64,000 bases of DNA from Escherichia coli (GCF_003018255.1 NZ_CP027440.1); one strand, 5' to 3'. Counted from the first letter of the stretch, positions 13,103 to 56,924 are shown. The notes: a model not told the origin generated them from the sequence alone. A program made the numbers and translations.

Positions 13103-13181
13103 TTTAAACTCCTTAAAATGATTGGATCGCATTAAAAAAGTAGGATTTATCGATAAAGTAAGCAAGTGCAAAGGACTCGTG

Positions 13182-13201
13182 TTTAAATAACAAAATCCTA
13201 A
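13182..13201 (-). promoter_or_regulatory. GAD box (GadE/GadX-GadW binding site) upstream of gadB
   Basis: Reverse complement reads TTAGGATTTTGTTATTTAAA, the conserved 20-bp GAD box, about 80 bp upstream of the gadB start. Confidence 0.75.
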
Positions 13202-13424
13202 TGTTATTTATCGTGAGATATTATGCGAATAATATTTTTTCATTGAAAATCAATACATTATTGAATTATTGGGTGGTAGCAAGGTGTTTTGTGTTGTTAT
13301 TTTTATGCACTTTCTACGCCTCCTGAATTATCACGTAAAAATCAGACCTTAAAATATCACTATTAGTACTTGGTTATTATTTTGAACGCATTTATAAAAT
13401 TATTACATAAAAATAGCGAATATT

Positions 13425-13457
13425 GATAAAATCCCCGCCAACGATGTGTTGACGGGG
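13425..13457 (-). terminator. Rho-independent terminator downstream of pqqL
   Basis: Reverse strand: hairpin ccccgtcaac...gttggcgggg followed by attttatc. Confidence 0.55.
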
Positions 13458-13463
13458 CTGTTA

Positions 13464-16259: not shown

Positions 16260-16303
16260 GCGAAAACCGGGCAAATTTACCCGGTAAAGTAAAATCCGAA
16301 CTA

Positions 16304-18676
16304 TTAAAATTTCATGCTGACATCAAGCCAGAAAGTACGGCCACTGGCGTAGGTCGCCACGCCGGTATTCGTTGTATCAACCGCGGTTTTGCTATCCAGT
16401 ACATTGAGAATATCGGCACTGATCGTCAGGTTTTGTTGTTTCAGAAATTGTGGCGTCCAGGACAAGCGGGTGTCCCAGGTCAGGCTGCTATCCAGTTTCT
16501 CGTCAACATACTGCTTGTAATCTGAATATTCGTTGATGTATTGCGCATTCGTCTTACCCAGGATAATGCGAGCTTTACGCGCTTCTTGCCAGGTCAGCGT
16601 ATTCGCCCACACCAACCCGCTCGGTTGATGCGTGAAATCCATGTTTAAGGAGATCTTTAATGGATTATTAAAATCCGCCACTGGAACGCTATCATAAGAG
16701 ACCAGATTACCGTTATAAACCACCCGGTTATCATCGGTATTGCTTTCCTCATAACCATTGTTTAACGACAAGTTGCCCTTGCTCTTGATATAGCTAAAGA
16801 CAATTTGCGGGTTAACATCTACCTGGCTGATATGCAGGGGTTCGGCCAGTTCAAAACTGAGGTTGAACGAATGCGTTTTGGTTTTGCCGTCGTTGTTATA
16901 TTCAGTAATGGTGGTTTTAGTCGCGCTGTCGGTACGACTGCTTTTGCTGATTTGATCATGCGCTTCACGGTAAACATAGTTTGCGCGCGCAATAACGTTC
17001 TTACCGATTTTCTGCTGCAACCCCATTGCCAGTTCATCGTTATAAGGCGTTTTCAAATCCTGATAACGCGTCAGGGTTTTATTGCCTGATACCGATTCCG
17101 TCCAGCTATTGCGGATATCACGTAATCCCATATCAAGAATATTCCCGCCATAGTAACGGTTATAACCTGCGGTAATCATTGAGGTTTGATCAGCAAAAAT
17201 ATCCCATTCCGTCATAAAGCGCGGGGAGATATTGTGGTTTGACAGATAGTTGTCATAGTCATACCGCACACCGGGCATTAACGACACATTCCGCCAGCTA
17301 ATGCGATCCGCCATATACAGCGTGTAGTTGTCAATTCCCAGACTGCCTTTACCTTTATGGTAAATGGTATGGTTAGTTTTCTTTCCTGCAGCATTAATCA
17401 CATAGGATTCAGACTGGTTATGGCGTTCAGTCCATGCATCGGAATAGATGTATTCCGCGCCGAAGTAGGGTTGATGCGAAACATCACCCACGGCGAATTT
17501 TTGCCAGTCCAGGCGTGTTTTGAAGGTGTAATTATCTACAGCCTGGGAAATGTGTCCTAATCCACCACGGGTGCAACGACCTGAAATATCACCATATGTA
17601 CATGAAAGTTCGGTGTACCAGATGTCATGATCGTGACGGGTATAATCACTAATATGATCCCAACCAACGGTAGTACGTAGTTTGGCCCATGCGAGCTGCG
17701 TATCCATATCCCATGCCAGACCGTAGGATTTATTACCCATTTCGCGATCAGACTGCGGGAAGGTGCTGGTATTATAATCACGACTGGAGCCGGTATATTT
17801 TAAGGTAAAATCGTGGGTAAAGCGGTCGCTGGCAAACCAAGTAAATTTGCTCAATGCGGTATCGATAACGTTTTTATACTGTGCCCGACCGGCGACAATG
17901 CCGTCATTCGAAACATAATCCGCGCGGGTGATATCAGACTGGCGGCGCGATAAACCGGCGGTAACGCCAAAGTTATCAGCGAGTTCCTGATTAAACGACA
18001 AGGTATAAAAGTTCTTTTTAAAATCTGGAGAGTAATAAGTACTTCCTGAAGAACCTTGATTAAATGCGCTCTTGTTATTCTCATCGATATGCGATGTTAA
18101 CCAGTCCGAACGCGTAGTGCGATAACCCAGTTTCACGCTGCTATCATCAGCGTTGAAGCGTTTGATCTTTGCATCAATTACCCCGCCATTGAAGCGACCG
18201 AATTCAACCGGCACAAAACTGTCATAAAGCGTCACATTGTCCAGTAAGCTGACATCAAGATAATAGCCCTGTGACATCCCGCTAATATTGGTTGCACTAC
18301 TGGCATCGGACTCATTCGCTGGGTTCAGGTTATTAGTTGCACTAATACCATCAATCAAATAGGCATTCTGGTAGGGCGACGCACCGTGAATAGAGATTTT
18401 CTCCGGGCGAATATCTCCCTGGTTCAATGAGGTACTTTGCGTTGAATCCATGCGCACCGCAGGGTTGGTTCTCAGCAGATCGCTGATATTGCCATTCCCG
18501 GTCGGTAAACGCTCGATGCTTTCACTGGTGTAATGCGTGTTGCCGTTTACGGGTACAGGGACAGGAGCATAGACCGTCATCTCTTCAAAAACATGCATGT
18601 ACATGTTTTTGTCATCGACGGCCTGCGCTACATCAGCGCCACATAAAATGACGCCAGGAATAAGAACTCGCTTCAT
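16304..18676 (-). CDS. yddB: TonB-dependent outer-membrane receptor YddB (790 aa)
   Basis: 790-aa ORF ending in a C-terminal aromatic residue; recognised. Confidence 0.92.
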   Translation of the reverse strand: MKRVLIPGVILCGADVAQAVDDKNMYMHVFEEMTVYAPVPVPVNGNTHYTSESIERLPTGNGNISDLLRTNPAVRMDSTQSTSLNQGDIRPEKISIHGASPYQNAYLIDGISATNNLNPANESDASSATNISGMSQGYYLDVSLLDNVTLYDSFVPVEFGRFNGGVIDAKIKRFNADDSSVKLGYRTTRSDWLTSHIDENNKSAFNQGSSGSTYYSPDFKKNFYTLSFNQELADNFGVTAGLSRRQSDITRADYVSNDGIVAGRAQYKNVIDTALSKFTWFASDRFTHDFTLKYTGSSRDYNTSTFPQSDREMGNKSYGLAWDMDTQLAWAKLRTTVGWDHISDYTRHDHDIWYTELSCTYGDISGRCTRGGLGHISQAVDNYTFKTRLDWQKFAVGDVSHQPYFGAEYIYSDAWTERHNQSESYVINAAGKKTNHTIYHKGKGSLGIDNYTLYMADRISWRNVSLMPGVRYDYDNYLSNHNISPRFMTEWDIFADQTSMITAGYNRYYGGNILDMGLRDIRNSWTESVSGNKTLTRYQDLKTPYNDELAMGLQQKIGKNVIARANYVYREAHDQISKSSRTDSATKTTITEYNNDGKTKTHSFNLSFELAEPLHISQVDVNPQIVFSYIKSKGNLSLNNGYEESNTDDNRVVYNGNLVSYDSVPVADFNNPLKISLNMDFTHQPSGLVWANTLTWQEARKARIILGKTNAQYINEYSDYKQYVDEKLDSSLTWDTRLSWTPQFLKQQNLTISADILNVLDSKTAVDTTNTGVATYASGRTFWLDVSMKF

Positions 18677-18713
18677 TTATTTATATCTCCGTACAGCAGG
18701 GCTTTTATTGTTT

Positions 18714-20399
18714 TTATATAACCGCGCTAATGTCACAAATATCATCAGCCAGGTTCCAGACACCGGGTTGATGTGTAACCATAATGACGCCGCTTGTGGG
18801 TAGTTTTTCACGCACTAAACGCAGTAAGCGGATAGCCTCTTGTTCCTCAAGATGAGAGGTAGTTTCGTCAAGAAATATCCATTTCGGACGTCGTAAAATT
18901 AATCGTGCCAGGGCGATACGTTGTTTTTCGCCGCTGGAAAGAATATCGCCCCAGCGATCGTGGTCATGAATACGCGCAGCCAATTTCCCCAGACCAACCT
19001 GATGCAGTACTTCGCTCAACGATTTATCGTCTACGGACAGGGGAAGTGCTTTACAAATTATCTCTTTCAGTAAGCCGGTTTTGATTAACGGTGTTTGTGA
19101 CACATACCAACTGTCAGCAGGAGAAGAAATATCACCTTTAAACCACGGCCAGCAGTGGGATAATGTTTTAAGCAGTGTGGTTTTTCCCGCACCAGAGTAA
19201 CCTTTCAGTAATAGCCATTTGCCTGGCGAAACATGAAAGTTCAGGTTCTCTAATATGATCTTATTATCAGGAGTACGAATACTCGCGTCAGCCACTTGTA
19301 CCGCATGTTGGCAATTTTTAGGCTTATTCGTAGGGCGCTGTTCGGTGAGTTGATGGAACTCATACAAACGATCGATAACCGCAGCCAGTTCAGCAAGTTC
19401 GTCATATTTATAAATAAACCAGCTTAAATTGTTCGATACCAGCATAAATGCCTGGCGCGATTTCATCAGTCCGCCCAGATTGATCTGTCCGCTAATAAAC
19501 TGCGGCAATAACAGAAAGTAGGGAAGAACGCTAAGCGAGCGCGAATAAATATTCTGCCAGTAATCAAGCCACCGCTGACGATTCATTAAACGATGCCAGT
19601 TCTCTTTAATGGTATGAAAATTGTCGCTTAACTCCTGGCGTTGTAGAGACTCAGCATTGCTTAGCGCAATCAGTTCTGCCTGCTTATTATGCTGCACAAG
19701 ATTAGTTCGAAATGTCGCTTCGCTACGTTGTTTTTCCACATTAAGCGGACGAATACGTTTACCAACCTTATGGGTAAATAAAGTTCCACCGATCACAATG
19801 AGCACAACGGTATAGACCATATACCCCTGGATATTCCATTCTGTTCCACCAACAGTGAATGAGAGCGTACCCGCGCTTTGCCAAAGAATAACGGTAAAGG
19901 TGATCAACATGCTAAGTGACTGGATGAAGCCAAATGAAAGGCTGAGCGTTTTACTGATCAGTAAGAGAATGTCCTCAGCGATACGTTGGTCAGGGTTATC
20001 TGTATTTTTATGCTCACCGTAGATCTGCGTGAAGTAGTAGTTTTTATCTGCAAACCAGCGATTAAGGTAGTAATCTGTTAACCATTCGCGCCAGCGAATA
20101 GTCAGTAGTTTAATTAGCCATGTTTTGTTTACGGATATTAATACAAAGATCCCCAGCAGGGCAGGGAACCAAAGGACAAGCTGCCAAAGCTTATCGGTTT
20201 CTTTCTGGCTTAGCGCATTGAAAAAATCATTATTCCAGTCGTTTAACCAGACCTGAATTTTAACCACGCCAAGGATCATGGCGAGGATAATAATGATTAA
20301 CAACACTGAAGTTTTATTATTCTTACGCAGCCAAAATGGCTTCAGCAGACAGAGATACTTTGCTATCAACATACAAAACGTAATGGGAATGGTTATCAT
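18714..20399 (-). CDS. yddA: Fused permease/ATPase ABC transporter YddA (561 aa)
   Basis: 561-aa ORF with N-terminal TM segments and C-terminal Walker A GYSGAGKT; recognised. Confidence 0.92.
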   Translation of the reverse strand: MITIPITFCMLIAKYLCLLKPFWLRKNNKTSVLLIIIILAMILGVVKIQVWLNDWNNDFFNALSQKETDKLWQLVLWFPALLGIFVLISVNKTWLIKLLTIRWREWLTDYYLNRWFADKNYYFTQIYGEHKNTDNPDQRIAEDILLLISKTLSLSFGFIQSLSMLITFTVILWQSAGTLSFTVGGTEWNIQGYMVYTVVLIVIGGTLFTHKVGKRIRPLNVEKQRSEATFRTNLVQHNKQAELIALSNAESLQRQELSDNFHTIKENWHRLMNRQRWLDYWQNIYSRSLSVLPYFLLLPQFISGQINLGGLMKSRQAFMLVSNNLSWFIYKYDELAELAAVIDRLYEFHQLTEQRPTNKPKNCQHAVQVADASIRTPDNKIILENLNFHVSPGKWLLLKGYSGAGKTTLLKTLSHCWPWFKGDISSPADSWYVSQTPLIKTGLLKEIICKALPLSVDDKSLSEVLHQVGLGKLAARIHDHDRWGDILSSGEKQRIALARLILRRPKWIFLDETTSHLEEQEAIRLLRLVREKLPTSGVIMVTHQPGVWNLADDICDISAVI

Positions 20400-25263: not shown

Positions 25264-27543
25264 TTAATTTGATGGTTCTAATTCAACCGGAATACTTTTA
25301 TAGCCTGGAATGCCACTTAATGGATCGTGGTTATCAAGTGTTAGCATGTGATTCGATTCTGGAAAATAGGTCACCAGTGAGCGGTCAGCCATAGGGTAAA
25401 TGACCACTTTTAATCTATCCATGCGGCGTGAGCTTCGCTTACCGTCTGGCGTAAGCGCAATAAGATTAACTCTTTCGCCGTTTTTTACACGGCAAATTTT
25501 AGCTTGTTTAGCACTCATAAAGACCACATCTCGTTGACCGAATACCCCTCGATAGCGATCATCCATACCATAAATCGTCGTGTTGTACTGATCGTGACTG
25601 CGTACTGTCGCCATGACTAGCTTACTGTTAAACGCTGAAGAGGGATCTTCTAACAGCCCTTTACTGGTAATGAAATTAGCCTTACCTGACGACGTCCTCC
25701 AGCGCCTTTCAGCAGCTGCGTTTATCAGGTGAAAACCTCCAGGATGTCGGATGCGCTGGTTATAGTCGGCGAACTCTGGCAGTACAGCTTCAATGTCATT
25801 GCGAATGCGATCATAATCTTCCACCAGATACTCCCAGGCTACCACGCTCTGGGGGAGTGCTGCCTGCGCGATTCCCGCAACCACTGCACACTCTGATTTC
25901 AGCATTACACCGGCGGGTTTTAACACGCCACGCGAGGCATGAATCATCGACATTGAATCCTCAACGGTTACCGCCTGCGTACCGCTTTTTTGCATGTCAA
26001 TCTCGCTGCGTCCCAGAACCGGCAGAATATAGCTATGCCGTGCGGTCAGCAGATGAGAGCGGTTAAGCTTAGTGGCAACGTGTACCGCCAGATCTAATTG
26101 CGTTAACGGTACAGCGCTCGCTTCCCGATCTGGCATTGCCAGTGCAAAGTTGCCCCCCATGCAGATCAATGCGCGAGCCTGCCCCGTACATATTGCTTGC
26201 ATGCTGGCAATTGCAGCATGTCCAGGTGCATGAGGTGGGGTGAAACCATAGCGCTCACCCAGGCGAGCCAGAAACTCTGCAGACGGTTTCTCGGTGATAC
26301 CGACGGTTCGGTCGCCCTGTACATTAGAGTGACCTCGTAGTGGGCAGATACCCGCACCAGGCTTACCAATGTTACCTTTCATCAACAGCAGATTGACCAG
26401 TTGCTGTACGTTCTGGGTACCATGTTCGTGCTGAGTGATCCCCATTCCGTAACAGATAATGGTTCGTTCGGCAGCGGCATATGCATCAGCAAGTTCGGCG
26501 ATTTGTGTCTGACTTAGTCCAGAAATACGTTCGATATCTTTCCACTCGGAATTGAGCACGTCACGGCGTAGCTCGTCAAAGCCGATGGTATGCGTTTGAA
26601 TAAATTCGTCATCCAGCAATGAGGGCCGACCTGCGGCGCTTGCAGCATCATCGCGCTCAATTAACAGGCGCATCATCCCCTTGAGCAACGCCATATCACC
26701 ACCAATGCGCACGTTGTAGTAGGCACTGGCCAACTGAGTCTCAGAGTTCGTCAGCATTTCAAACGGGTTTTGCGGTGCGGTAAATCGCTCCAGGCCACGT
26801 TCCTGTAGAGGATTGATGGCGATCATTTTCGCTCCCCGTTTCACTAAAGCGCGCAACGAAGTCAACATGCGAGGGTGGTTTGTACCAGGGTTATGCCCAA
26901 TGCAAATGACTAAATCGCATTTCTCAAAGTCTTCCAGCAACACGGTCCCTTTACCTACACCGATACTCGCTGCCAAACCCACACTGGTCGGTTCATGGCA
27001 CATGTTGGAGCAGTCGGGGAAGTTATTGCTCCCGTATTCACGGGCAAAAAGCTGATAAAGAAAGGCAGCTTCATTGGAAGTGCGGCCCGAAGTATAGAAT
27101 TCAACCTGATTGGGATCACTATAGCTTTGAAGGCGTTCGCCAATTTCGTCGAAAGCTTGTTGCCAGCTTAATGGCTTGTAACAGTCGCTGACGTCATCAT
27201 ATTTCAAAGGCTGAGTGAGACGTCCCGCAGCCTCAAGCTCGTGATCTCCCCAGGTAAGTAATGATTGAACCGTATTCTCAGCAAAGAAAGAGGCATTTAC
27301 CTGCTTATCCGTGACTTCCCAGGCGATTGCTTTTGCGCCGTTTTCACAAATGTCGAATGACGCACTGTGCTTAGGATCTGGCCATGCACATCCCGGACAG
27401 TCAAAGCCCTCTGGCTTATTCATATCAAACATGGCAATAACATCCTGGCGTATATCCATCTGCTTACGTACTGCATTTGCTACGGATTTAACAGCACCCC
27501 AACCACCGGCAGCTCCCTGGTAGGATTCAATTTTTTTCTTCAT
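25264..27543 (-). CDS. ydeP: Molybdopterin-type oxidoreductase YdeP (759 aa), acid resistance
   Basis: 759-aa ORF; recognised. Confidence 0.93.
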
Positions 27544-27803: not shown

Positions 27804-27875
27804 AATAGCCTTCACAAAATAATTATCCGCGCAATTTTCGCGAATGGAGCGCATAGACTAAGGTCAAAATCACAA

Positions 27876-28790
27876 TTATTCATAGATAAAAGTGACACCA
27901 ATGACTGACTGAACTGTTCCGGCTGAAACTTTGTTTCCTGTTTGTCCATAGGTTGCGCTTAAACCCAGAGGTACTTTGCTTTTATTTACTGTCCCCAGGG
28001 AGACGTTTTCTCCCGTAGCCAGTATTTTTCCATTACGCATCAGAGAGACACCCACTCCCGATGCTTTTGTTGCATCTGGTGCTGTGTTAGCAAACACTTG
28101 TCTGGCACTGTCAGTGGTAGCACCCGAAAGATAAAATGAGAGCTTTTGTTCACTTGAGCAATATACGCCAAGGGGTATTTCTGCGCTTCCAAGAAAGTCC
28201 GGGAGATTCACGTTGACATTACGACTATCAACGGTGCAGCCGCCTGTTGGCATAACAACACTGTTATTTGAAATAATATTCCACGTAAAATTACGCGGAT
28301 TTCCGCTTCCTAACGTGGCAATTTTATACATATGAATACGGGCAATAACTTCCCCTGCTTTTATGACAACTCCACCGGCCACTCCGACTGGGGTAATATA
28401 GAGTTTTAACGGTAATGGCATCGGTGTCTTATCACCAATATCCAATACGTTGGTATTTGTCGTCAACGGGAAGGGGTAGGTCACATTATTCCAGTACAGT
28501 GATCCTTTATATGACTGTAGGGAGCCTGCGAAAGCTGATCCTTGTACCAGGTTTATATGATCAGTGTCGTACCAGCCGCCGTAATCATTCCAGCAACTTA
28601 TATGCTGAGACAAGTCTACAACCAGATTCTGGCCCGGTTGTATTACAGGATCGAGATTAACATAAACAGAGGTTGTACCTGCTCCAATACTTGACCCGCC
28701 ATCGACATTACAACTGAAGGCAAAAACTTTGCCTGCCATTAATAGAAGATAAATACCGAACAGGACCTTTATACTGAATGTTTTATCCAT
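27876..28790 (-). CDS. ydeQ: F9 fimbrial tip adhesin, FimH-like (304 aa)
   Basis: 304-aa ORF with signal peptide and lectin plus pilin domain organisation; last gene of the fimbrial operon. Confidence 0.9.
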
Positions 28791-28849
28791 GATATATCCT
28801 AAGGTTAAAAAATTGATTTAAAAAGGAGGCAAAAAAAATCAAATTGATG

Positions 28850-29353
28850 TTATTGCCAGGTATAGATCACATTGATTAGCGCCTCGATCGTTCCCTGGCT
28901 TGCGTTTCCATTCACCGTGATAGCTCTTGCCTTAAGTGGAAACTGTGCATTACGAGTGATCTCATCAACAATAACCGTTTTGCTATCGCCATTTTTTAAC
29001 GTCGCATCCTGGTCATCCCTTAGCTCTATCTGAATATTTTCGGCAGTACCTTCATTTTTGTAATAACCCGTATTGTCAGTTGAACCTGTCACGATTGCCG
29101 TCACTGCACTTGTTTCAACCGGACAATCGGTTAATGACAAAGTAATATTGTGCCAGCCTGATGCAGAACCAGGTTGTTGCAGATTGCGCGTATAAAGATC
29201 CCCGAGATTAACGTTAGCTTCTTTGGTTTGAATAGTGCAGGGTTTAGCGACTACCCGACCATTAACAGTGATAGTGACATCGGCGGCCTGGAGAGTTGCT
29301 GTGAATAACGCGCAAAACGTCGCTAACAGGAACCTCTTGTGAAGTCTTTTCAT
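28850..29353 (-). CDS. ydeR: F9 fimbrial minor subunit, FimG-like (167 aa)
   Basis: 167-aa secreted pilin-like ORF. Confidence 0.9.
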   Translation of the reverse strand: MKRLHKRFLLATFCALFTATLQAADVTITVNGRVVAKPCTIQTKEANVNLGDLYTRNLQQPGSASGWHNITLSLTDCPVETSAVTAIVTGSTDNTGYYKNEGTAENIQIELRDDQDATLKNGDSKTVIVDEITRNAQFPLKARAITVNGNASQGTIEALINVIYTWQ

Positions 29354-29365
29354 ATCTGGCTCTGA

Positions 29366-29896
29366 TTATTGAAATTCAAGGGTAAAGGTTGCCGAAGCCC
29401 TCACCAGTCCCGGATTGACGGACTTCTGAGTTGACTTCAGACGAGCGGAGTAAGGCAAAATATTGTTCTGTTCTGGTACCAGTGGGATCCACTGCATCCC
29501 GGCATGAAGGTCATTCAATTTCACCGGACGCATATTTCCGTCCAGTATTTCTATACCCAAACCGGAGGCCGTGTTGCTTCCTTCATCCAGTTTCAACAGA
29601 GTATTATTTTCTGCATCCTCAATACCGTTAAATGCAACCCGAACCCCCGTTGTCCCTTTACTGCATTCACTTAACGTAATCTGAAAAGGGACGGCTGGAC
29701 TTGTGCTACCGGTCGTTGGAAATTGTCTGGCACTGTTTTTTTGGAGATCTACGGTAAAATTAAGCGAATCCGATGAGACTGTGCAGCCATAATCGAGAAC
29801 GCGCCCGCTAATTTTAATAACGCTATCTGCAGATAAAGCAGAATAGGTGGTTAACCCCAGACATAAACCGAGGAAAATAACGTTATTGTATTTCAT
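29366..29896 (-). CDS. ydeS: F9 fimbrial minor subunit, FimF-like (176 aa)
   Basis: 176-aa secreted pilin-like ORF. Confidence 0.9.
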   Translation of the reverse strand: MKYNNVIFLGLCLGLTTYSALSADSVIKISGRVLDYGCTVSSDSLNFTVDLQKNSARQFPTTGSTSPAVPFQITLSECSKGTTGVRVAFNGIEDAENNTLLKLDEGSNTASGLGIEILDGNMRPVKLNDLHAGMQWIPLVPEQNNILPYSARLKSTQKSVNPGLVRASATFTLEFQ

Positions 29897-29909
29897 AATC
29901 TATTGTTCC

Positions 29910-32561
29910 TTAGCGACAGATTGCTGTCTGCTGGTTCAGCAAGGTTTCAGGAGAGACTGCAGGAAGCTTGTACTCGACAATACAGTTTGAGTTTTTATCT
30001 TTGCCCCATGAAACCTGTAATTTCCCTGACTGTGGAAGTCCAGTCAGATAAACCTGACCGTTTTCCGCGACAATGCTGCCATTTTTATTCTCCCCATGTG
30101 TGACAATTGCACCGAATGGAACGCTCTTATTACCGTACTTCAACGTCATTAATACTTTCCCGCCGATTTGTGCATTAAATGTTGCTCTGGCAATAGCACC
30201 GTGAGTTGGGATGACAGTGACAACGGTTTCATCCAGTTCAACATTATCTGCAAGGGAATTCGCGTTAAGAGCGACACGATTTTCTCTATATTCTGTCGCA
30301 AATGGTAATATGGCATAGCCACGCCAGTCGGTATGAATTCCGGTCTGGTTCTCTATTTTGACATTATCAGCGCCAGGAGCCTTAACCAGAACCATTGTGT
30401 CGCCCAGCGGCTGTCCAAAGGTGATGCCATCAGCATGAGCAATAATGCCACCACTCATTCCGTAATAAATCTGGCTGCTGTCACCACTCCGACTGTAACC
30501 GACATTCGTATTACCGTAAGCTCCACGATAATTAAGAGAACTGTAACCACTGGTGCCAGACGATGTATTACCCCCTTGGGTGTTACCGACCTGAACGCTA
30601 TAATTCAGGTTATTATCCGGCAGCAGAGTGCCATAAACCCCTGATAGGTTGGTCATGCCGCCTTTCAAATCGTTTGACATACTGTAACTGGCGTTTGAAT
30701 TACGAAATGCCGACTGACTGTCTGTACGCATCCAATGACTGAAGGGAACATTAAGCGTAAAAGCAAGTAAATGATCCCGATCGTTTTGCCATATATTATT
30801 GGAATAGCTGTAATTCAGCGAAGTCGTAATATCACCAAACGGCACATTTAATCCAAATGATATTTGCTGGTCGCTGCGTGACGTGTTCCAGTAACTTTGG
30901 CGACTGGCACTGAAAAATGTCGTACCGTAATGTCCAAGCTGCTGAGAGATGCTTATTTGTTCCTGACCACGCTTACTGTAAAACAGATTAAAATAATCAA
31001 TAAATAGTGTCTGCTCATTGCTGTCTCCGGTAGGAGGCTTGACGGTGTAACCACTCATTCGACTGTAGGCACTGTCGGATAAGTTATAAAAACCTTGCGT
31101 AGAATAGCGATATCCTGCGACCTGGATATTGGTTCCCGTCTGGTAGAAGGATTTGCTGTAGACGGATTTAACCGATTGTCCGCTGTGACGGGTGTCATCT
31201 GCAAGCGTCGTATTGGCCTGCGTGATATCGAAAGAAAAGGCACCAAAAAGTCCTAAATCTTTACCAATACCAAGGTTGAAGGCCTGATATTCTTCTGCAA
31301 TTTGCATTCCGCCATAAGGTGTCCAGTTTCCTTCCAGTCCATGCATCAAGCTACCTTGTATGAATTTGGGGGAGCTTTGCAGGTTATTTCCACTACGATA
31401 TTCCCCCATGGCAAGCGCATAACGCGTATATCCAGCACGTTGGAGAACCGGAACAGACGAATAAGGAACATATAATGTCTGAATACTGCCGTCTGCATCT
31501 TTTATGGTTACTTGCAGATCACCACCATTGGCCGCAGAGTTGATATCATCAATAGTAAAAGGGCCGGGTGGGACAGTAGTCTGATAAACATCGTATCCAT
31601 TCTGTTTTACACTCACTTGTGCGGTGCCGCGGGCAATACCATGAATCACCGGAGCGAAACCATGTTGGCTATCGGGCAACATCGCTTCTGTTGAATTTAT
31701 TTTGAGGCCACGAAAGTTTACACTATCAAAAATATCGCCATCGGTATAACTATCACCTACCGTTAAGCGTGAGCGTAAGGGAATAATGTCACGTTCAGCC
31801 GACGTATTGATATGCTGCCATTTATTGCTGTCAGATGAATTGCTACTCCCACTGTTATAACTCCACGTTGAGTTATCGCGCAGTCGCCAACTACCAATGT
31901 TGATGCCACTCTGTAAATTCAAATATGCATAGTTGGATTTTCCTGCATTATGGTTACTACGATTATTAATAGAATTACCATTAAAACTATAGTTTAGTAG
32001 CCCAGCATTTATTCCTTCTTCCCACAGATCCGGAGAAACATAGCCGCGAGCCATTCTGCCAACATAAATTTGCGGAACGGAGAGTGATAGATGTTGCTGA
32101 CCAACATTAAACTCAGATGATGCGTCAGCCAAACGATCCCGAAGTGGTGTGCATGCGCTGTTGTCCGACACATGTTTTTCTGCCGAATGTTCCTTATTGT
32201 CTAATAATGCAGATTTTTTTATGCCAAGACTGACAAGAAGATCTGTACTCAGGCATGGGATGAGATCTGCGTTATTATCATCTGCAATAAAAGTAATATC
32301 CCGACTAGTCATAAATTCGTCGTTCAAATAAATGTCGACCCGATATGTACCAGGTGGTGCCTCGTGTCCCTTAGTAAAGGCGGATAAATCGACAGATTCA
32401 GCAAGATCATTGCTTAAAAACCGTGGATTAAAATAATACTCTGCGTCAACGGGAAAAACCGCAGTTGCTAAGCCAAGGGCAATGGTAAGCCGTGCAAAGC
32501 GAGGCAGTAGTAACACCTGATGCATACGATATGCCTTAAATGCGGCACGAAAGGCTGTCAT
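29910..32561 (-). CDS. ydeT: Full-length F9 fimbrial outer-membrane usher, FimD-like (871-883 aa depending on start)
   Basis: 883-codon ORF collinear with FimD throughout (for example YLNLQSGINIGSWRLRDNSTWSYN, FAPVIHGIARGTAQV); N-terminal half present. Confidence 0.9.
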   Translation of the reverse strand: MTAFRAAFKAYRMHQVLLLPRFARLTIALGLATAVFPVDAEYYFNPRFLSNDLAESVDLSAFTKGHEAPPGTYRVDIYLNDEFMTSRDITFIADDNNADLIPCLSTDLLVSLGIKKSALLDNKEHSAEKHVSDNSACTPLRDRLADASSEFNVGQQHLSLSVPQIYVGRMARGYVSPDLWEEGINAGLLNYSFNGNSINNRSNHNAGKSNYAYLNLQSGINIGSWRLRDNSTWSYNSGSSNSSDSNKWQHINTSAERDIIPLRSRLTVGDSYTDGDIFDSVNFRGLKINSTEAMLPDSQHGFAPVIHGIARGTAQVSVKQNGYDVYQTTVPPGPFTIDDINSAANGGDLQVTIKDADGSIQTLYVPYSSVPVLQRAGYTRYALAMGEYRSGNNLQSSPKFIQGSLMHGLEGNWTPYGGMQIAEEYQAFNLGIGKDLGLFGAFSFDITQANTTLADDTRHSGQSVKSVYSKSFYQTGTNIQVAGYRYSTQGFYNLSDSAYSRMSGYTVKPPTGDSNEQTLFIDYFNLFYSKRGQEQISISQQLGHYGTTFFSASRQSYWNTSRSDQQISFGLNVPFGDITTSLNYSYSNNIWQNDRDHLLAFTLNVPFSHWMRTDSQSAFRNSNASYSMSNDLKGGMTNLSGVYGTLLPDNNLNYSVQVGNTQGGNTSSGTSGYSSLNYRGAYGNTNVGYSRSGDSSQIYYGMSGGIIAHADGITFGQPLGDTMVLVKAPGADNVKIENQTGIHTDWRGYAILPFATEYRENRVALNANSLADNVELDETVVTVIPTHGAIARATFNAQIGGKVLMTLKYGNKSVPFGAIVTHGENKNGSIVAENGQVYLTGLPQSGKLQVSWGKDKNSNCIVEYKLPAVSPETLLNQQTAICR

Positions 32562-32602
32562 TATTAATTCCGATTGAGTTTATTATTAATTAAGTCACTG
32601 CT

Positions 32603-33313
32603 TTACTGCATGGTTGCCTTAATACGCGGAGTTAATGCACCGTAATCATTGATCGTCTGAAAACTGATATCTCCGGATGCGGCATGCGGGATATCCACCG
32701 ATACTTCACCTTTTGGCGGCACCATGGTGTTTGGGAGATTGCTATTTCCTGCTTTCATATTCGTTACGGTAATGAAGTAGGGCGTTGGATTAATAAGAGT
32801 AAGTTTGCTACCGCTGCGACGAAACCGAAGCATTGCAGGCGCTTCTTCAGGTGCCATTGCCAGGTTCGTGGGGCGATAAAACATTTTTATGCGGCTAATA
32901 ATTGCCAGCTGTAATGTATTCTCATTCTTCTGGTCTTTTTCCATAGCAGGAATAGCTTTAACATTCACCCAGAACAGGCTTTCACGGTCGCCTGGTAACT
33001 GATGATTAGTGGCGTTGATTATCCGCAGCGTGTTCTCTTTTTTACCTTGCATGGAAAAAAGCGGTGGCGTAATGACAAACTGGGTGTCTTTTTGGTCACC
33101 CGCATTTTCTATCCATGACTGAATGAGATAGACACTGGCAGGATCATTATTCGTGACAGGCAATAAAACCTGTTTCTGGTTTGCCGGATAAATTACCCGC
33201 GTCGCACCCAGTGCGACAGCTGCGTTGGCAACGGTGCTATGGCAAGCAAAGAGCAATAAAAGTAACACTGTCGCCATAAAGGAAACAGAGTAGGGGGGAC
33301 GCGTAGTTTGCAT
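32603..33313 (-). CDS. F9 fimbrial periplasmic chaperone, FimC-like (about 236 aa); start uncertain between 33322, 33313 and 33277
   Basis: Strong similarity to FimC (GATRVIYPA...KENTLRI...LQLAIISRIK...INDYGALTP); GGAGA RBS upstream. Confidence 0.88.
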   Translation of the reverse strand: MQTTRPPYSVSFMATVLLLLLFACHSTVANAAVALGATRVIYPANQKQVLLPVTNNDPASVYLIQSWIENAGDQKDTQFVITPPLFSMQGKKENTLRIINATNHQLPGDRESLFWVNVKAIPAMEKDQKNENTLQLAIISRIKMFYRPTNLAMAPEEAPAMLRFRRSGSKLTLINPTPYFITVTNMKAGNSNLPNTMVPPKGEVSVDIPHAASGDISFQTINDYGALTPRIKATMQ

Positions 33314-33675
33314 CTGATGCATTCTCCATGTGTTAAGAGGATAAGCGGGGAAACCGTTACATCAGACAATCGGTAAATGTTGCTAATACATTGGCGAGTC
33401 GCCGGGTTTCCAGACTTAATGCGTTTGAAATAAATGTTGGTTCTCTTTTAATAGGAAAACCTTGCTATAAAGTAAATATTTTAAATAACAGTAAGTTTAA
33501 CTACTGTTGTTTATTGAACGTTTAGATATTATGTGATTTTTTCATACCGCTCCAAAACACAAACTATTCCTCATTAATAATGAGATGAACATTGGTGAAT
33601 TTCTCGGGTGTGCGTAGCCATGCCACACACACCCTGTTTCAATTTCAGATGACGTATAGCCATCTTAAGATTGAA

Positions 33676-34239
33676 TTATAGATATTGAACTTTGAAGGTC
33701 GCATCAGCGTTTGCAGTACCAGCTACTGACTGCCCGAGAGCAATATAACGAGCCTGGAACGGCAATATATTCGTGCCATCAATCAAGTCAGTTTTAGCGC
33801 TAAAAGTGGCACCATCAAGTATTAATACCTCCCCCGTACGGTCCAAAATTTGAATACCGACATTTTGGGCAGAGCCTGCCGCTGAACTCTGCAGCGCTAA
33901 CGTATCGTCATTACTGGTGACAGTAGTACCCAGGAATGCAACAGCTGCATTACTGGAAACATTGGTATCACAATCATTCAGCTTGATATTGAAGCCAACG
34001 GCGGAGCTGAGGTCACCCGCTTTAGCCAGACGAGAAGAACGGACCTGACCCAGCTCAACCGTTTGGTTCATTGATTCTGAATCAATCGCACAAGCGGCAT
34101 TTACCACTTCACCTTTAAAATGAATAACACCGCCATTAACAGTGGTCGTTACTGATTCATCACCCTCGGCTGCGCTTACCGCAGCAGACGACATCGCCAA
34201 TACAGAAACGACAATCATACCGACATGTTTGAGTTTCAT
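33676..34239 (-). CDS. F9 fimbrial major subunit, FimA-like (187 aa), start ATG at 34239 ([23 protein letters not shown])
   Basis: Strong similarity to FimA ([21 protein letters not shown]...[12 protein letters not shown]...[11 protein letters not shown]); GGAG RBS 6 nt upstream. Confidence 0.88.
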
Positions 34240-34672
34240 AATTCTCCAAAATTTATATTTAAGTAGCTGAATAAAGAGAGTTAACAATTAAGTCATTCTG
34301 TTATTGCTTATAAAACAAGAATCATTCTTAATTGGTAGTTGCCCTGAGAATATAGTTTCCAGGGTTATTACATTTCACGAAGAACGATAATATCTTTAAA
34401 TTACAAGGACACCTAATCACAACAAGTTTATTGCAGCACTTGTTGTAGAGAGTATTTGCAAAGACATTTTATGTCGCTAAATAACATGACGATTTCATTA
34501 TGCATGTTATTTATAAACCGTGACTAAACAGAATATTATTGCGAACAAGGGAAGTGTCAGGAAAGGTCAAGAGCGACCAATGGTTTATATGGCTATAAAT
34601 CATTAGCCATAGTTAATGTTTGCCTGGTGTAACTAACACGGAATTGCTCTAAACAGATAAGTGTAGGGTTTA

Positions 34673-34927
34673 TTAAAGCTGACCGACAGACTTTCTTAAC
34701 CTGGTAATATCTCTCTTAGGTGACTCTCCAAACATCCGCGAATATTCCCGACTGAAATGGGATAAGCTTTCGTAACCGACAGCATAGGCTGCAGTGGTGA
34801 CATCGTAATGTTCATTCAGCATCAGTCGCCTGGCTTCATTGAGGCTTAGCCATTTCCGATACCGGAGTGGACTCATTCCCGCAAGCTGTCTGAAATGTTG
34901 ATGGAAAGAGGGGGTGTTCATTTGCAC
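34673..34927 (-). pseudogene. yneL: AraC-family regulator C-terminal fragment (84 codons)
   Basis: ORF encodes only the second HTH of an AraC-type domain (...LSHFSREYSRMFGESP...); no N-terminal domain upstream in frame. Confidence 0.7.
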
Positions 34928-35214
34928 GCGGTTTGCCAGCCTGACTCTTCAACGCTGAGAAGATGCGGCAAACGGCAAACCTGCATACCAGCCAGCCTAT
35001 ATCCGGTATGCACAGGCCAATTATGAAAGAGGAGAGGCTTTATGTTCTGGAACCTTGAAGTAATAACGTCGACCGGAAAATCACTCTGCATCATCACTCA
35101 GATTCAATTTAACATAATATACATTATGCGCACCAACATAAACCAAGGGAGAATCCAGCCGTTGGCGGTCATGATTGTCCTGCTCATTAACAACGGCCAC
35201 ACCCCATATCTTAC

Positions 35215-36531
35215 TTAATACCATTCTCGGCTTAACCGACGGTGCAACCTCAACACATTGGTTTCAACTGCCGTCACCACGTTCTCCGGAAAATCTGTCG
35301 GTAATGAAGTCTTCACGTTATCCAGTGCTGCCGGAATCATTCTGGCAAAGTCACTCAGGATTTCATGCATCTGCACTTGCGGAAATTTCAGCACCTTTGC
35401 TGTCGCCAGAAAATGTCGCGGATAAATTTTATCGATTGCCGTTTTTTTGCCTTTGGATGCGTTAAGCCCCATTGCCAGTTTGAGATCGCTGATGTGTATT
35501 CCTGCACCACCCAATACCGGAAATGCTGAAATGATGTCGTAAAATGGCGTGAGTCGATAACTGCCGCCAGCCTGAATAAATACGGAGAAGTTTTTTGCAT
35601 GGCCATCCGTTGCGCCAATCAACCACTGGAACACCTGAAACTTCATAAAATCATAGCGATCTTTCAGCGCCTCGCTGGACCCCATCAAAAAAGCCATGAT
35701 CCGCGCGATGCCTGGGCCTCCATCTGATTCATATTTCACCGATGAAGGTAAACCGAATGTCTGACACATATCCTCCTGTGGCAAGCGAAGTAAAACCGTT
35801 CGCTCAGCATTCCAACGCCTGTCAAAACGTTCGACCGCTAACGCGCGCACATTTCCCGCTTTAATGATTTCTGCGTCCGGCACATTCAACCCAAGTTCTT
35901 TAGCCAGCAGCAGACAGTAATACTCATTATCAACGCTTTGGCTGAGATCGAGCGTCGCATTGGGCTGCCTGATTTCGCCAATCGGTAATTTAATGATGTG
36001 CGTCGTCGGCGTTATTCCTTTCGGAATGCACCAGTCATTGCCTATTCTGAGCAGCGCTGTCTTCTCCTGCGCGCCAGCAACCGAGATGCGAAAGTCATTT
36101 TCTTCTCTAATCATGCCCAGAGGGATATCTGCTTTATAAGCCGTTAATACTTCTTCAAACCTGGCTTCAGTGAGCTGTTCCCATGCCATTATCGGGCGCG
36201 TTATGGTTTCATTTTCGGGTAATAACGTTACGGCACCAACGCTGTCTCGCCCTATTTCTGACAATAAATCAAACGGTTGTCTGGATTTAGCATGATAACG
36301 TTTAACGATCCGATCACGTACAATCGGGCTATCGGGTAACAGGTTATCGAAGAAGTTAAATACGGCATCAGAGGTGATATTCCCCCTCTGCAATGGCAGC
36401 GAAAGTGACAACGGTCTGGCATAACGGCTGGCTAACCACTCCGGTGCATACTTAAAGGTGTGCGCGCCATTGGCTAACTTCGTTAACTCGCCTACCCGCT
36501 GGTTGTTCATCCAAGTGACAAGTTTAGGCAT
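35215..36531 (-). CDS. hipA: Serine/threonine kinase toxin HipA of the HipBA toxin-antitoxin system (438 aa)
   Basis: ORF 35215..36588 trimmed to MPKLVTWMNNQRVGEL; start ATG overlaps the hipB stop by 1 nt (TAATG). Confidence 0.93.
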   Translation of the reverse strand: MPKLVTWMNNQRVGELTKLANGAHTFKYAPEWLASRYARPLSLSLPLQRGNITSDAVFNFFDNLLPDSPIVRDRIVKRYHAKSRQPFDLLSEIGRDSVGAVTLLPENETITRPIMAWEQLTEARFEEVLTAYKADIPLGMIREENDFRISVAGAQEKTALLRIGNDWCIPKGITPTTHIIKLPIGEIRQPNATLDLSQSVDNEYYCLLLAKELGLNVPDAEIIKAGNVRALAVERFDRRWNAERTVLLRLPQEDMCQTFGLPSSVKYESDGGPGIARIMAFLMGSSEALKDRYDFMKFQVFQWLIGATDGHAKNFSVFIQAGGSYRLTPFYDIISAFPVLGGAGIHISDLKLAMGLNASKGKKTAIDKIYPRHFLATAKVLKFPQVQMHEILSDFARMIPAALDNVKTSLPTDFPENVVTAVETNVLRLHRRLSREWY

Positions 36532-36797
36532 TACCACTCCAGATCTTGCTGTTCTGTTGATTCTGGCGAGGCATTTTTCGTGTCGCATAGCGTCATTGAG
36601 AGTTCAAGCGACTGTAAAATCTTAAAAAAGGTCGTCAGCGTGGTATTGTCAGGGTTGTTTTCGAAATTGGAAATCGTCGCCTGCTTAATACCAATTTTTT
36701 TCGCCAGCTCGCTCTGCGTCCAGCCATTTTGCTGGCGAACCAGTTTCATTGCATTCGCCAATTGCGTTGGGCTATAGATCTTCTGAAAGCTCATCAT
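36531..36797 (-). CDS. hipB: Antitoxin and transcriptional repressor HipB (88 aa)
   Basis: MMSFQKIYSPTQLANAMKLVRQQNGWTQSELAKKIG... Xre-type HTH; recognised. Confidence 0.93.
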   Translation of the reverse strand: MMSFQKIYSPTQLANAMKLVRQQNGWTQSELAKKIGIKQATISNFENNPDNTTLTTFFKILQSLELSMTLCDTKNASPESTEQQDLEW

Positions 36798-36818
36798 GTC
36801 ATACGTCCACAGCAAATT

Positions 36819-36968: not shown

Positions 36969-38945
36969 TTAAGCCGCATGCATCTTCGACATGCGGCTAT
37001 TCCCTTGGGTATCGCCTTTTACGTTCATCTTATCGGTGGGCGAATTATCGCCGCCCAGCGTCGCGTTGAACGTCATCAGGCCATTGTTTCCGGTATAGTT
37101 ACCGTTAACGGTCAGTACATTCCCCGGTTTCCCCCCTTCGCTGTTCATTTGAACCGTGCCACCATTCTCCAGGTTACCGCCGACAGTGGTTTTAGCGACA
37201 CGCAGTGTCCCCCCTGGCATAACGTTCACATCACCTGCAGTGGTGACATTTCCCGACATCACACCGCTGTTATGGATATTAATGTGCTGACTTGCCATAT
37301 TAATGGCAGAGTCGGAACCGAAAGCAATTTCACCACCCACGATATCCGTCGTACCCTTATACGCCGCGGAATCTTTGTTAAGCGTCAGGATCCCGGTACC
37401 CAGTTTTGTCACATCACCGCTACCGCTGATACTGTGCGTCATCACCCAGCTACGCTCAGTGGAGATGGTGAGCAGGCCATTATTGATAACGGAAGCATCA
37501 CCCAGGTTTTTCTGCTCGTTGACGCTAAGCGCGCTGCCTGTATCAATGTTGAATTGCCCCACAAAGCGGCTATTATCGCCATCCAGCTCTACGTCTGTCC
37601 TGGCGGTTGCGCTCACGATACCCTTCCCGCTTATGCTATTACGCAGTTCGCCGGTCACGTTTTTTAGCGTTAACAGACCGTCATTGGCAATATTTCCTCT
37701 GCCTAACCCCTGCGTATTATCGAGGCTGACTTCCGCATTTGGGCTAATGCTGGTTAACGCATTGTAGCGTGCATTAAGCCCCTCGATAGCCAGTGTTCCC
37801 CCTGTAACATTCAGGTTTCCGCCACCTGTCAGTTCGCCCTGACTGATCCCACCTTTATTCACCGTCAGCGACCCCTCTTTAAACAAAACAGTCGAACCCA
37901 TTTGCCCGGTGAATGTCTCTACCGTCTGGGTCGATCCATTAAGATCGACGATGGCCGCGTTGCTGATGTTCAGTTCCCGGGTGTTGCCCAGCGCGCCATC
38001 CGCATCGGTACGTAATGTCCCCATCTGAACGTAGGTTGCCCCCTGATAGTCGTTCTGACCGTTGGAAAGCGAAACCTGTCGTACCGTATTGATTGCCAGA
38101 TCCCCTTCGCCACCGATTTTTGCCGACATATCGACCGTTGCGCCATAAGCTCCGCCATGTTCGGCTAACGTCAGCTTTTGCCCACCATGGATGTTCAGCG
38201 CTTTCAGCCCATAGTTAACATACAAACCATCACCAGGTGCGGTCGTGAGGCGGAATCCATAATCACCCTCGGCGACCACCGTTCCGTTTTGCGCAATATG
38301 TAACGTTTTGTCCGCTTCCACCTCGTCGCCCTGTAAATCACGTAACGTTAATGAACCACCCGATCCAATAACCGTTTGCGCCTTCACCAGTTGAACGCCG
38401 ACATGGCTATCGTCGTGTTCCATCAAATTGAGCGTCGTCAGAGGGTTATTCGCCATGGGATCATTCCACGGTTTAGGCACGTCGATAAGCACGTCGCCCA
38501 TCCCGTTTACCTGATAGTTACGGCCTTTCCAGGTGTAGTCACCCGCGCCGACAACCAGCGTATCGACGCTGATATATCCCTCCGCAAGCGTCGCAGCAGG
38601 TATATCCGTATCGAACGTGAGCGTACCGCCATTCATGGCTAGTCCACCAATGGATTGCTCTCCCACTTTTACCGATGTGGTATTTTCACTGTCAGACTGC
38701 AGCATCGCGTAAGTAAGCGCAGCGGTGTTGTCGCGTTCCAGTGCGAAGGTACTGGCTTTCAGTTGGGCAACACCGGCGAATTCAGTCCCTGCTGCATGGG
38801 TAAAGCCAAACATTTTGTCGGAGGATGACAGCTGCACTCGCATCAAGCCATCGCCTTTGAGCGCATTGATCAGCGTGAATAGCAATTTCCCCTTGAATAT
38901 AGTACTGGTGATGGAACGATGAATCTGCAAGCTGGCATTTAACAA
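36969..38945 (-). pseudogene. yneO: AIDA-like autotransporter passenger-domain fragment; no signal peptide, no C-terminal beta-barrel
   Basis: 658-codon ORF of glycine-rich beta-helix repeats (GGTL, NGG, TLN motifs), starts without a signal sequence and ends ...GNSRMSKMHAA; lies between hipB and lsrK where the yneO pseudogene sits. Confidence 0.7.
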
Positions 38946-56586: not shown

Positions 56587-56924
56587 GCTATTTTTGATAG
56601 TTCATGCGGCTAATATGCTCTATATAGTGATGCTCCGATGACTTATGACTATATGGGGCAAATATGGTTACGCCAGTAAGCATCAGCAATTTCATCTCAC
56701 TTCCTGATGATTTTCCCGTTCGCAATATTGCACCTCAGGTAAAAGAAGAACAGGCCCCCTTCCTGATCGTCATTAAAATGTGATGTTAACAACTCTCTGA
56801 TGCGTGACAGAACAACCGTCAGAGAGATGGAAATGCGATCCAGATCACAAATGCATTGTATTCACATCATTAACCGTTTTAAGATCATTTCATCACTTTT
56901 TCGCAACTCACCCGATAATCTGTT

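Follow-up and report, generated by a model that had tools for sequence, protein, structure and literature searches.

The minus strand of a 64,000-nucleotide stretch of Escherichia coli DNA (GCF_003018255.1, NZ_CP027440.1; hereafter the window) carries what its sequence identifies as an intact F9 (Fml/Yde) chaperone-usher fimbrial operon. Our explanation as a whole, in which an intact F9 copy is silenced by H-NS, its products are assembled by the chaperone-usher pathway, a hairpin behind the first gene has a regulatory role and the K-12 allele is a derived deletion, is very probably correct. Everything central on F9/Fml was already published between 2014 and 2018; an 11-nt palindrome around the -10 hexamer and transcription start, and selection on the hairpin behind fmlA, are small details that have remained undescribed.

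Gene Content and Chromosomal Position

ORF calling yields six closely packed, uninterrupted minus-strand ORFs between positions 27876 and 34239, which encode in order a FimA-like major subunit, a PapD/FimC-type chaperone, an 883-aa usher, the FimF-like YdeS, the FimG-like YdeR and the adhesin YdeQ/FmlH. Each of the six proteins contains the expected Pfam domains, all far over the curated cut-offs (in operon order: Fimbrial; PapD_N and PapD_C; PapC_N, Usher and PapC_C; Fimbrial; Fimbrial; FimH_man-bind). Their lengths equal those of the counterparts c1936-c1931 in the UPEC strain CFT073, at identities of 97.4-98.8%, and in the nearest complete genome all six are annotated by PGAP as intact coding sequences. 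A sequence-only reading of this DNA had proposed a six-gene F9-type operon with uninterrupted ORFs and had suggested the comparison with F9 proteins; coordinates, domains and CFT073 lengths bear the proposal out, and a search for frameshifts or stops in the usher and chaperone genes found none.

The first gene, fmlA (33676-34239, minus strand; 187 aa; c1936 homologue; Pfam Fimbrial, 5.9e-31), encodes the F9 major subunit and starts at the ATG at 34239, not at an upstream TTG at 34287. Its product is identical to that of CFT073 at 184 of 187 residues and shares 70% with FimA. The gene for the periplasmic chaperone (32603-33313, minus strand; 236 aa; c1935 homologue; PapD_N, 8e-40; PapD_C, 7e-12) lies in an ORF open to 33322, for which the start at 33313 is favored by GGAG spacing and the PGAP annotation; 231 of its 236 residues are those of CFT073, and it is 61% identical to FimC. 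Two-domain chaperones of the PapD/FimC (FGS) type anchor their subunits through Arg8 and Lys112, and the R in AVALGATR and the K in NVKAIP of the F9 chaperone align with FimC R8 and K112. The outer-membrane usher (29910-32561, minus strand; c1934 homologue; Usher, 4.5e-199), whose domains span residues 43-195 (PapC_N), 213-795 (Usher) and 804-867 (PapC_C), had been estimated from sequence alone at about 880 aa and full length. At 883 aa it is indeed matched over its full extent by FimD structures (residues 18-883, 1164 bits), and 22 of its residues depart from those in CFT073 (861/883 identical). Two adaptor subunits follow, both with the Pfam Fimbrial domain: YdeS (29366-29896, minus strand; 176 aa; c1933), which is identical to CFT073 at 173 and to K-12 at 174 of 176 residues and finds its best PDB match in FimF (45%), and YdeR (28850-29353, minus strand; 167 aa; c1932), which is identical to CFT073 at 165 of 167 residues, with FimG as best PDB match (57%) and an identical mature N-terminus, ADVTITVNG. 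The tip adhesin gene ydeQ/fmlH (27876-28790, minus strand; 304 aa; c1931; FimH_man-bind, 3.4e-77) closes the operon. Behind it, the terminator-scan candidate (27825-27845) is no more stable as a fold than shuffled sequence (z = 0.31), and an Rfam search of the window returned no family in or near the operon, its single match being STnc560 at 62633-62846.

The signal peptides that had been claimed for all six products are supported by alignment to PDB mature chains, which begin directly after the cleavage points in VSA/AEGD, ANA/AVALGATR, VDA/EYYFNPRF, ALS/ADS and LQA/ADVTITVNG. In alignments, the N-terminal donor-strand extensions of FmlA, YdeS and YdeR pair with their counterparts in FimA, FimF and FimG, and the mature two-domain adhesin begins with lectin-domain residue F1, without a donor strand.

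The operon is flanked by ydeP on its 3' side (25264-27543) and by hipA/hipB on its 5' side (35215-36815). The same neighbors are annotated in the nearest genome, and both this slot and the six-gene order have been described likewise for F9 (PMC3966885), a system reported as restricted to E. coli and Shigella, whose cloned CFT073 cluster (pF9) makes fimbriae (PMC3966885 and citation therein). Gene order, lengths, position, promoter and a 251-nt leader are thus shared with F9/Fml/Yde as known from CFT073 (c1931-c1936), UTI89 (fml) and EHEC O157:H7 (F9), and the differences from CFT073 are allelic only. The leftover AraC-family piece (yneL) that the sequence-only reading had placed directly upstream is found at 34673-34927 (minus strand) as an 84-aa C-terminal fragment with HTH_18 as its only domain (1.9e-21), annotated by PGAP as 'incomplete; missing N-terminus'. 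It is a neighbor outside the operon: the fragment is likewise present in K-12 and O157 and is not found upstream of f9 in strain 1105 or in CFT073, where SDR and LysR genes take its place.

The Adhesin and the Relation to Type 1 Fimbriae

The lectin domain of the adhesin is identical at 159 of 160 residues to the crystallized FmlH of PDB 6AOW; the sole difference, A113V, falls outside the binding loops (residues 10-15, 44-53 and 132-142), and over the whole protein 8 residues differ from CFT073. All six residues listed for the galactoside pocket of FmlH, F1, Y46, D53, K132, N140 and R142 (PMC5866590), are present. It is this lectin domain, together with CFT073 orthology, the six-gene order and the shared chromosomal slot, that identifies the locus as F9/Fml.

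Could the locus nevertheless be a mannose-binding type 1 (fim) operon? PGAP calls the major subunit 'type 1 fimbrial major subunit FimA', some genomes label ydeS and ydeR as fimF and fimG, the adhesin matches the Pfam family 'FimH, mannose binding', and identities of the products to Fim proteins run from 45 to 70%, with FimD and FimH matched full length. The F9 operon is in fact the closest paralogue of type 1 fimbriae (fimAICDFGH), with the same gamma-type chaperone-usher architecture and subunit roles. However, against FmlH the lectin domain reaches 360 bits, and against the lectin-domain chains of FimH only about 130 bits, its pocket is the galactoside-binding set, and the slot between ydeP and hipBA is not the fim locus. 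Unlike in fim, neither fimB/fimE nor fimI was found in or next to the locus, nor were repeats of the fimS type round the promoter, and the position of fimI is taken by a non-coding gap. The type 1 identity is thus refuted by the sequence comparisons and can be given practically no probability. As an F9 adhesin, the protein is predicted to bind galactosides, in contrast to the mannose binding of type 1 fimbriae (PMC5866590).

Promoter and Leader

A promoter scan places the f9 promoter at 34497-34526 on the minus strand, with a -35 hexamer TAGTCA (34526-34521), an 18-nt spacer and a -10 hexamer CATAAT (34502-34497). The predicted transcription start, G 34490, lies 251 nt before the fmlA ATG, exactly as in CFT073, where the start was mapped by 5'-RACE (PMC3966885). 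The two promoters agree nearly base for base, with TAGTCA here against TAGTCG in CFT073 and both CATAAT and the G at -251 kept. Among 5,426 complete E. coli genomes, the 61-bp promoter segment is found in 4879 and is identical in 3399.

About 430 bp of very AT-rich DNA had been noticed upstream of the major subunit gene, and the 433 bp in question (34240-34672) do have a GC content of 32.3%, against 47.8% for the window, which puts them among the lowest 0.7% of 433-bp windows. The 5' leader itself (34240-34490, minus strand; 251 nt) has 29.9% GC and corresponds to the 251-bp CFT073 fragment that binds H-NS by gel shift (PMC3966885). H-NS silencing of the present copy is therefore supported by transfer from CFT073, given the near-identical promoter. 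An inverted-repeat search finds a 9-bp hairpin within the leader, at 34419-34446; the notion of a structured leader or RNA thermometer is not convincing, as z is -2.3 and the minimum free energy structure makes up only 0.0001 of the ensemble. For Dam/Lrp control of the pap type, GATC sites were sought between 34200 and 34950 and none was found, and a search upstream for flanking repeats of a fim-type invertible switch returned only an 11-nt palindrome and small hairpins.

This palindrome, the perfect inverted repeat TAAATAACATG(N14)CATGTTATTTA at 34478-34513 (minus strand), has the -10 hexamer and the start between its arms, which cover -23 to -13 and +3 to +13. A repeat at least this long turns up in only 8 of 1000 dinucleotide shuffles of the 433-bp region, and the palindrome is kept in CFT073, O157, O111 and K-12; it goes unmentioned in the study that mapped the promoter (PMC3966885). 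That F9 has two undescribed cis-regulatory elements, with the palindrome as operator of a dimeric repressor and the hairpin behind fmlA under selection, is a proposal we regard as doubtful. Such a repressor, acting besides H-NS, is perhaps to be sought among the variable regulators encoded beside the operon.

The Hairpin and Gap behind fmlA

Between fmlA and the chaperone gene lies a non-coding gap of 362 nt (33314-33675, minus strand; 36% GC), which is 98% identical to CFT073 and occupies the position of fimI in the fim operon. An ORF scan of the gap yields only ORFs of at most 58 aa, none of them pilin-like, so that a fimI relic was rejected, and neither ORF scanning nor the comparison of the subunits with PDB chains disclosed a FimI-like terminator subunit elsewhere in the operon.

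Starting 42 nt past the fmlA stop, the gap contains a hairpin of 13 pairs with a 3-nt loop, GGGUGUGUGUGGC-AUG-GCUACGCACACCC, at 33606-33634 (minus strand). A stem-loop had been claimed around 33620-33650; it exists, slightly to the left of the position given. For a 91-nt segment including it, the folding energy is -35.8 kcal/mol (z = -6.6), a stability that none of 200 shuffles attained. In eight strains picked for divergence, the hairpin is unchanged in seven, with variation at 1 of its 29 columns against 9 of 21 in the flank (Fisher p = 0.0009), which suggests that it is under constraint by purifying selection. It does not qualify as a canonical intrinsic terminator, since its 3' flank, GAGAAAUUCACC, holds no U-tract and it is absent from the terminator-scan output.

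What could such a hairpin do? The processing of papBA in pap and the decay model of CFA/I likewise involve a stable hairpin directly after the major-subunit gene and before the assembly genes (PMC5927463). There, differential mRNA stability is the precedent, and the arrangement yields more pilin than assembly proteins (PMC5927463). The likeness of F9 to these systems is one of gene and hairpin layout only. By this analogy, the stoichiometry control that the sequence-only reading had in mind is plausible, and the hairpin may set the ratio of pilin to assembly proteins via protection of 3' ends or partial termination. We consider it rather unlikely that neither the hairpin nor the AT-rich intergenic DNA serves in regulation, and that the hairpin is conserved merely because the locus is young or recombines as a block. 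Such a reading would draw on the overall divergence of E. coli F9 alleles of only 2-3%, on the missing U-tract and on the invariant stem, which offers no compensatory base changes and leaves energy and conservation as the support for the structure. It is opposed by the contrast between hairpin and flank columns in the eight strains and by a fold 6.6 standard deviations more stable than the shuffles.

The Deleted Allele of K-12

In K-12, the DNA corresponding to window positions 31137-34417 (3,281 bp) is missing, and with it codons 1-475 of the usher gene, the genes for the chaperone and the major subunit, and 178 of the 251 leader nt. What is retained are the f9 promoter with the initial 73 nt of the leader, intact ydeQ, ydeR and ydeS, and ydeT, a 408-codon 3' fragment of the usher (codons 476-883), the shared genes being 96.7-99.4% identical between the two alleles; the flanks, ydeP, the AraC fragment and hipBA, are the same as here. 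The truncation of K-12 to ydeQ, ydeR, ydeS and an usher pseudogene, as given in the sequence-only reading, was therefore accurate, and K-12 does not carry all six full-length genes. K-12 has the derived state, produced by deletion of 3,281 bp, and the complete operon is ancestral.

The implied rarity of an intact operon was overstated. At least 80% of the segment missing from K-12, our measure for carrying it, is held by 3514 of the 5,426 complete E. coli genomes, so that the intact F9 operon is the majority state, at about two thirds of sequenced strains, as already published. In about a thousand E. coli genomes, K-12 included, the promoter is fused to the 3' half of the usher gene and ydeSRQ, and such deleted genomes could still transcribe an orphan FmlH adhesin.

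Discussion

Our analysis suggests the following working of the operon. A sigma-70 promoter (-35 TAGTCA, -10 CATAAT) would fire at G 34490 and give a transcript running from the 251-nt AT-rich leader through fmlA, the chaperone and usher genes, ydeS and ydeR to ydeQ. H-NS, coating the AT-rich promoter and leader, would keep the operon mostly silent at 37 C, as shown in CFT073 and expected here by near-identity. When expressed, the six precursors should follow the established pathway of Sec export and signal peptide cleavage. The chaperone would then cap the subunits by donor-strand complementation, with R8 and K112 holding the subunit C-terminus, and the usher would assemble FmlH, YdeR and YdeS, in this order, and then a rod of many FmlA via donor-strand exchange. 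By analogy with papA and CFA/I, the most likely effect of the hairpin behind fmlA is a higher ratio of FmlA to the assembly proteins, which it could bring about by blocking 3' exonucleases on processed fmlA mRNA, by partial termination, or by both.

H-NS represses F9 at 37 C and wild-type CFT073 shows very weak expression (PMC3966885); a combined transcriptome and proteome study of CFT073 in 2025 likewise found F9 expression to be low, without thermoregulation between 23 and 37 C (PMC12890032), so that the 2014 report of induction at low temperature cannot be called robust. Part of the operon is missing from roughly a third of E. coli genomes, which shows selection for it to be dispensable in some lineages, and the 22 substitutions in the usher and 8 in the adhesin relative to CFT073 could in principle be inactivating, most of them recurring in K-12 or other strains. 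The present operon might thus be intact and yet cryptic, with H-NS never relieved or the usher or adhesin disabled by a substitution, and no F9 fimbriae made. We judge this unlikely: six ORFs have been kept over 6.4 kb without one frameshift or stop, the lectin pocket is invariant, promoter, leader and hairpin are conserved, wild-type CFT073 was observed to bear F9 fimbriae at 20 C (PMC3966885), and FmlH has a part in chronic urinary infection of mice (PMC5866590).

For annotation, it follows that automatic pipelines mislabel the F9 major subunit as type 1 FimA, and that the K-12 reference represents a deleted, derived allele, in which the limits of the deletion show the promoter to be kept; beyond correct annotation, the importance of the finding is slight. 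For the strain itself, the sequence indicates a genetic capacity for a galactoside-binding adhesin, FmlH, which has been implicated in chronic infection of the urinary tract, in biofilm at low temperature and in binding to plants.

Results

What does the window hold at the F9 (Fml, Yde) chaperone-usher fimbrial locus? Flanked by ydeP (25264-27543, minus strand) on one side and, on the other, by an AraC-type fragment and then hipA/hipB (34673-36815, minus), six closely packed ORFs are called on the minus strand. These are the major-subunit gene fmlA (33676-34239; Pfam Fimbrial), a chaperone gene (32603-33313; PapD_N and PapD_C), the gene of an 883-residue usher (29910-32561; PapC_N, Usher and PapC_C), ydeS (29366-29896; Fimbrial), ydeR (28850-29353; Fimbrial) and ydeQ, encoding the adhesin FmlH (27876-28790; FimH_man-bind), and each Pfam assignment scores well over the family's own curated cut-off. 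The listed fmlA ORF begins at an upstream TTG; the ATG at 34239, preceded by GGAG, is the annotated start in related genomes. In uropathogenic strain CFT073 (c1931-c1936, 12499-18861 of the extracted locus), all six genes have the same lengths as in the window, and the products are 98.4% (FmlA), 97.9% (chaperone), 97.5% (usher), 98.3% (YdeS), 98.8% (YdeR) and 97.4% (YdeQ) identical.

Of the adhesin's first 160 mature residues, 159 are identical to those of the 'F9 pilus adhesin FmlH' in its crystal structures (PDB 6AOW and ten other entries), which substantiates the assignment. The lectin domain scores 360 bits against FmlH and about 130 bits against FimH lectin-domain chains. The sole difference from 6AOW, A113V, lies outside all three binding loops, and all six galactoside-pocket residues (F1, D53, K132, N140, Y46 and R142), which in FmlH contact the Thomsen-Friedenreich disaccharide or inhibitors (PMC5866590), are kept. 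The six signal peptides are supported as well, since for all six products the mature PDB chains start directly after an Ala-X-Ala-type site preceded by a hydrophobic stretch. Thus, the ORFs, their Pfam domains and the CFT073 and FmlH matches bear out the intact six-gene F9-type operon described in the sequence-only reading and support its interpretation.

All the other products can be aligned with type 1 proteins: identity is 70% between FmlA and FimA and 61% between the chaperone and FimC (R8 and K112 positions aligned), usher residues 18-883 align with FimD, and the best matches of YdeS and YdeR are FimF (45%) and FimG (57%), respectively. The last five genes are separated by gaps of 41, 13, 12 and 59 nt, and fmlA and the chaperone gene are 362 nt apart (33314-33675). 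While type 1 fimbriae carry fimI at this position, the F9 gap is AT-rich and non-coding, and the search for ORFs within it found no counterpart of the fimI-like terminator subunit gene.

A stem-loop after the major-subunit gene had also been proposed. It is present, stable and conserved, but sits at 33606-33634 rather than around 33620-33650. On the minus strand, 42 nt past the fmlA stop, GGGUGUGUGUGGC-AUG-GCUACGCACACCC forms 13 pairs, two of them G-U, and the 91-nt segment that holds it has a folding energy of -35.8 kcal/mol as against -16.8 +/- 2.9 for shuffled sequences (z = -6.6). Among eight strains, some of them picked as most divergent over a 50-nt stretch, 1 of 29 hairpin columns varies compared with 9 of 21 in the flanks (Fisher p = 0.0009), which argues for constraint on the hairpin, though not through covariation. 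A canonical intrinsic terminator was considered and rejected, as the sequence directly 3' is GAGAAAUUCACC; the terminator scan of the window did not report the hairpin either.

The DNA upstream of fmlA is indeed very AT-rich, as had been noted: GC content is 32.3% at 34240-34672 and 29.9% in the 251-nt leader (34240-34490), as against 47.8% in the whole window, where just 0.7% of 433-bp segments are equally AT-rich. In CFT073, 5'-RACE placed the f9 transcription start at a G that precedes the ATG by 251 nt, downstream of a promoter composed of TAGTCG, an 18-nt spacer and CATAAT, and purified H-NS shifted the 251-bp fragment (PMC3966885). The window promoter matches, with TAGTCA (34526-34521), an 18-nt spacer and CATAAT (34502-34497) on the minus strand, and a G at 34490, at exactly the same distance from the ATG. 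The -10 hexamer and the mapped start are surrounded by a perfect 11-nt inverted repeat, TAAATAACATG / CATGTTATTTA (34503-34513 and 34478-34488; span 34478-34513); dinucleotide shuffling of the upstream region yields a repeat of that length in just 8 of 1,000 cases. The repeat is kept in CFT073, O157, O111 and K-12 and finds no mention in the 2014 promoter paper (PMC3966885).

Homology among lineages starts roughly 50 nt ahead of the -35 hexamer; farther upstream, the DNA of CFT073 and strain 1105 differs, which makes the AraC fragment a neighbour rather than part of the conserved unit. That it is a leftover, as had been suggested, is confirmed: the 84-residue ORF (34673-34927) has HTH_18 as its only domain, and the nearest genome annotates it as 'incomplete; missing N-terminus'. 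In the freshwater isolate TB06051 (3501-3960 of its locus, corresponding to window ~34503 onward), unrelated DNA adjoined by hipA replaces everything upstream of the -10, the -35 included, and the operon is otherwise intact.

K-12 does not carry the same full-length genes, and the truncation that the sequence-only reading gave for it proved correct. There, ydeQ, ydeR and ydeS are complete, ydeT is reduced to a 408-codon 3' usher fragment flagged as a pseudogene, and BLAST maps a deletion of 3,281 bp corresponding to window 31137-34417, with one base common to both junction sides. Lost are usher codons 1-475, the chaperone and major-subunit genes and 178 nt of leader; the f9 promoter and the first 73 leader nucleotides are kept, fused to usher codon 476 (about position 6637 of the K-12 locus). 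A 9-bp leader hairpin (34419-34446) directly abuts the upstream endpoint. The K-12 AraC fragment is frameshifted.

Among 5,426 complete E. coli genomes, 5,419 match the 7.7-kb region at least partially and 3,567 over at least 80% of it. The nearest (2017.09.02CC, JNE112863 and JNE23-011) are 99.9-100% identical, most others about 97-98.5%. The segment missing from K-12 is covered to at least 80% in 3,514 genomes and has zero match in 1,607. As 4,879 genomes have a 61-bp promoter segment and 3,819 have a match to the deleted segment, about 1,060 carry the promoter without any of that segment, pointing to roughly a thousand K-12-like layouts that have lost the 5' genes.

Elsewhere in the window, dosP (5596-8019) and digH (8561-9880) lie just ~540 bp apart (8020-8560), so that dosC, a diguanylate cyclase gene that precedes dosP in K-12, is reduced to a short remnant, annotated as a partial pseudogene in the nearest genome. 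The ddp operon (ddpXABCD, 1-5519), for D-Ala-D-Ala dipeptide transport and a dipeptidase, is present in the window but has no alignment in the stretch compared from 2017.09.02CC, otherwise the closest relative; positions 1-6000 are 100% identical to JNE23-011 and JNE112863. At ~56748-56758, about 1 kb of yneK present in 2017.09.02CC is absent; yneK is also truncated in CFT073. A 658-residue ORF (36969-38945) is the remnant of a large autotransporter gene; its annotation in the nearest genome lacks the N-terminus as well as the C-terminus, and the K-12 counterpart is labelled frameshifted. The sole Rfam match in the window, full-length and located near or inside ydeE, is to the Hfq-binding sRNA STnc560 (62633-62846, minus; 280 bits, E = 5e-64).

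Discussion

What can be discerned about the control of this operon? Transferred from CFT073, silencing by H-NS is a well-founded prediction for the window operon. The inverted repeat may be an operator, or may simply belong to the H-NS nucleation sites that are predicted at +8 and +14. Low-temperature induction of F9 is contested, a 2025 study having found low expression and no thermoregulation in CFT073 (PMC12890032). The hairpin would enrich the major-subunit message over that of the assembly genes, the likeliest role by analogy with papA and CFA/I (PMC5927463).

Our population figures agree with published surveys, in which the operon was found intact in 25 of 42 genomes, in 61% of the ECOR strains and in 80% of the UPEC isolates, with every phylogroup A genome examined carrying a disrupted one; the order of the six genes, the flanking ydeP and hipBA and a variable 5' neighbourhood with hypothetical regulators were likewise described (PMC3966885). 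The F9 locus is a textbook example of a system characterised before, with published crystal structures, inhibitors, population surveys and a mapped promoter. In NZ_AP025214.2 and many other genomes, the NCBI pipeline gives its major subunit the name 'fimA: type 1 fimbrial major subunit FimA', and in some genomes ydeS and ydeR are labelled 'fimF' and 'fimG'. Such labels can make F9 pass for type 1 fimbriae.
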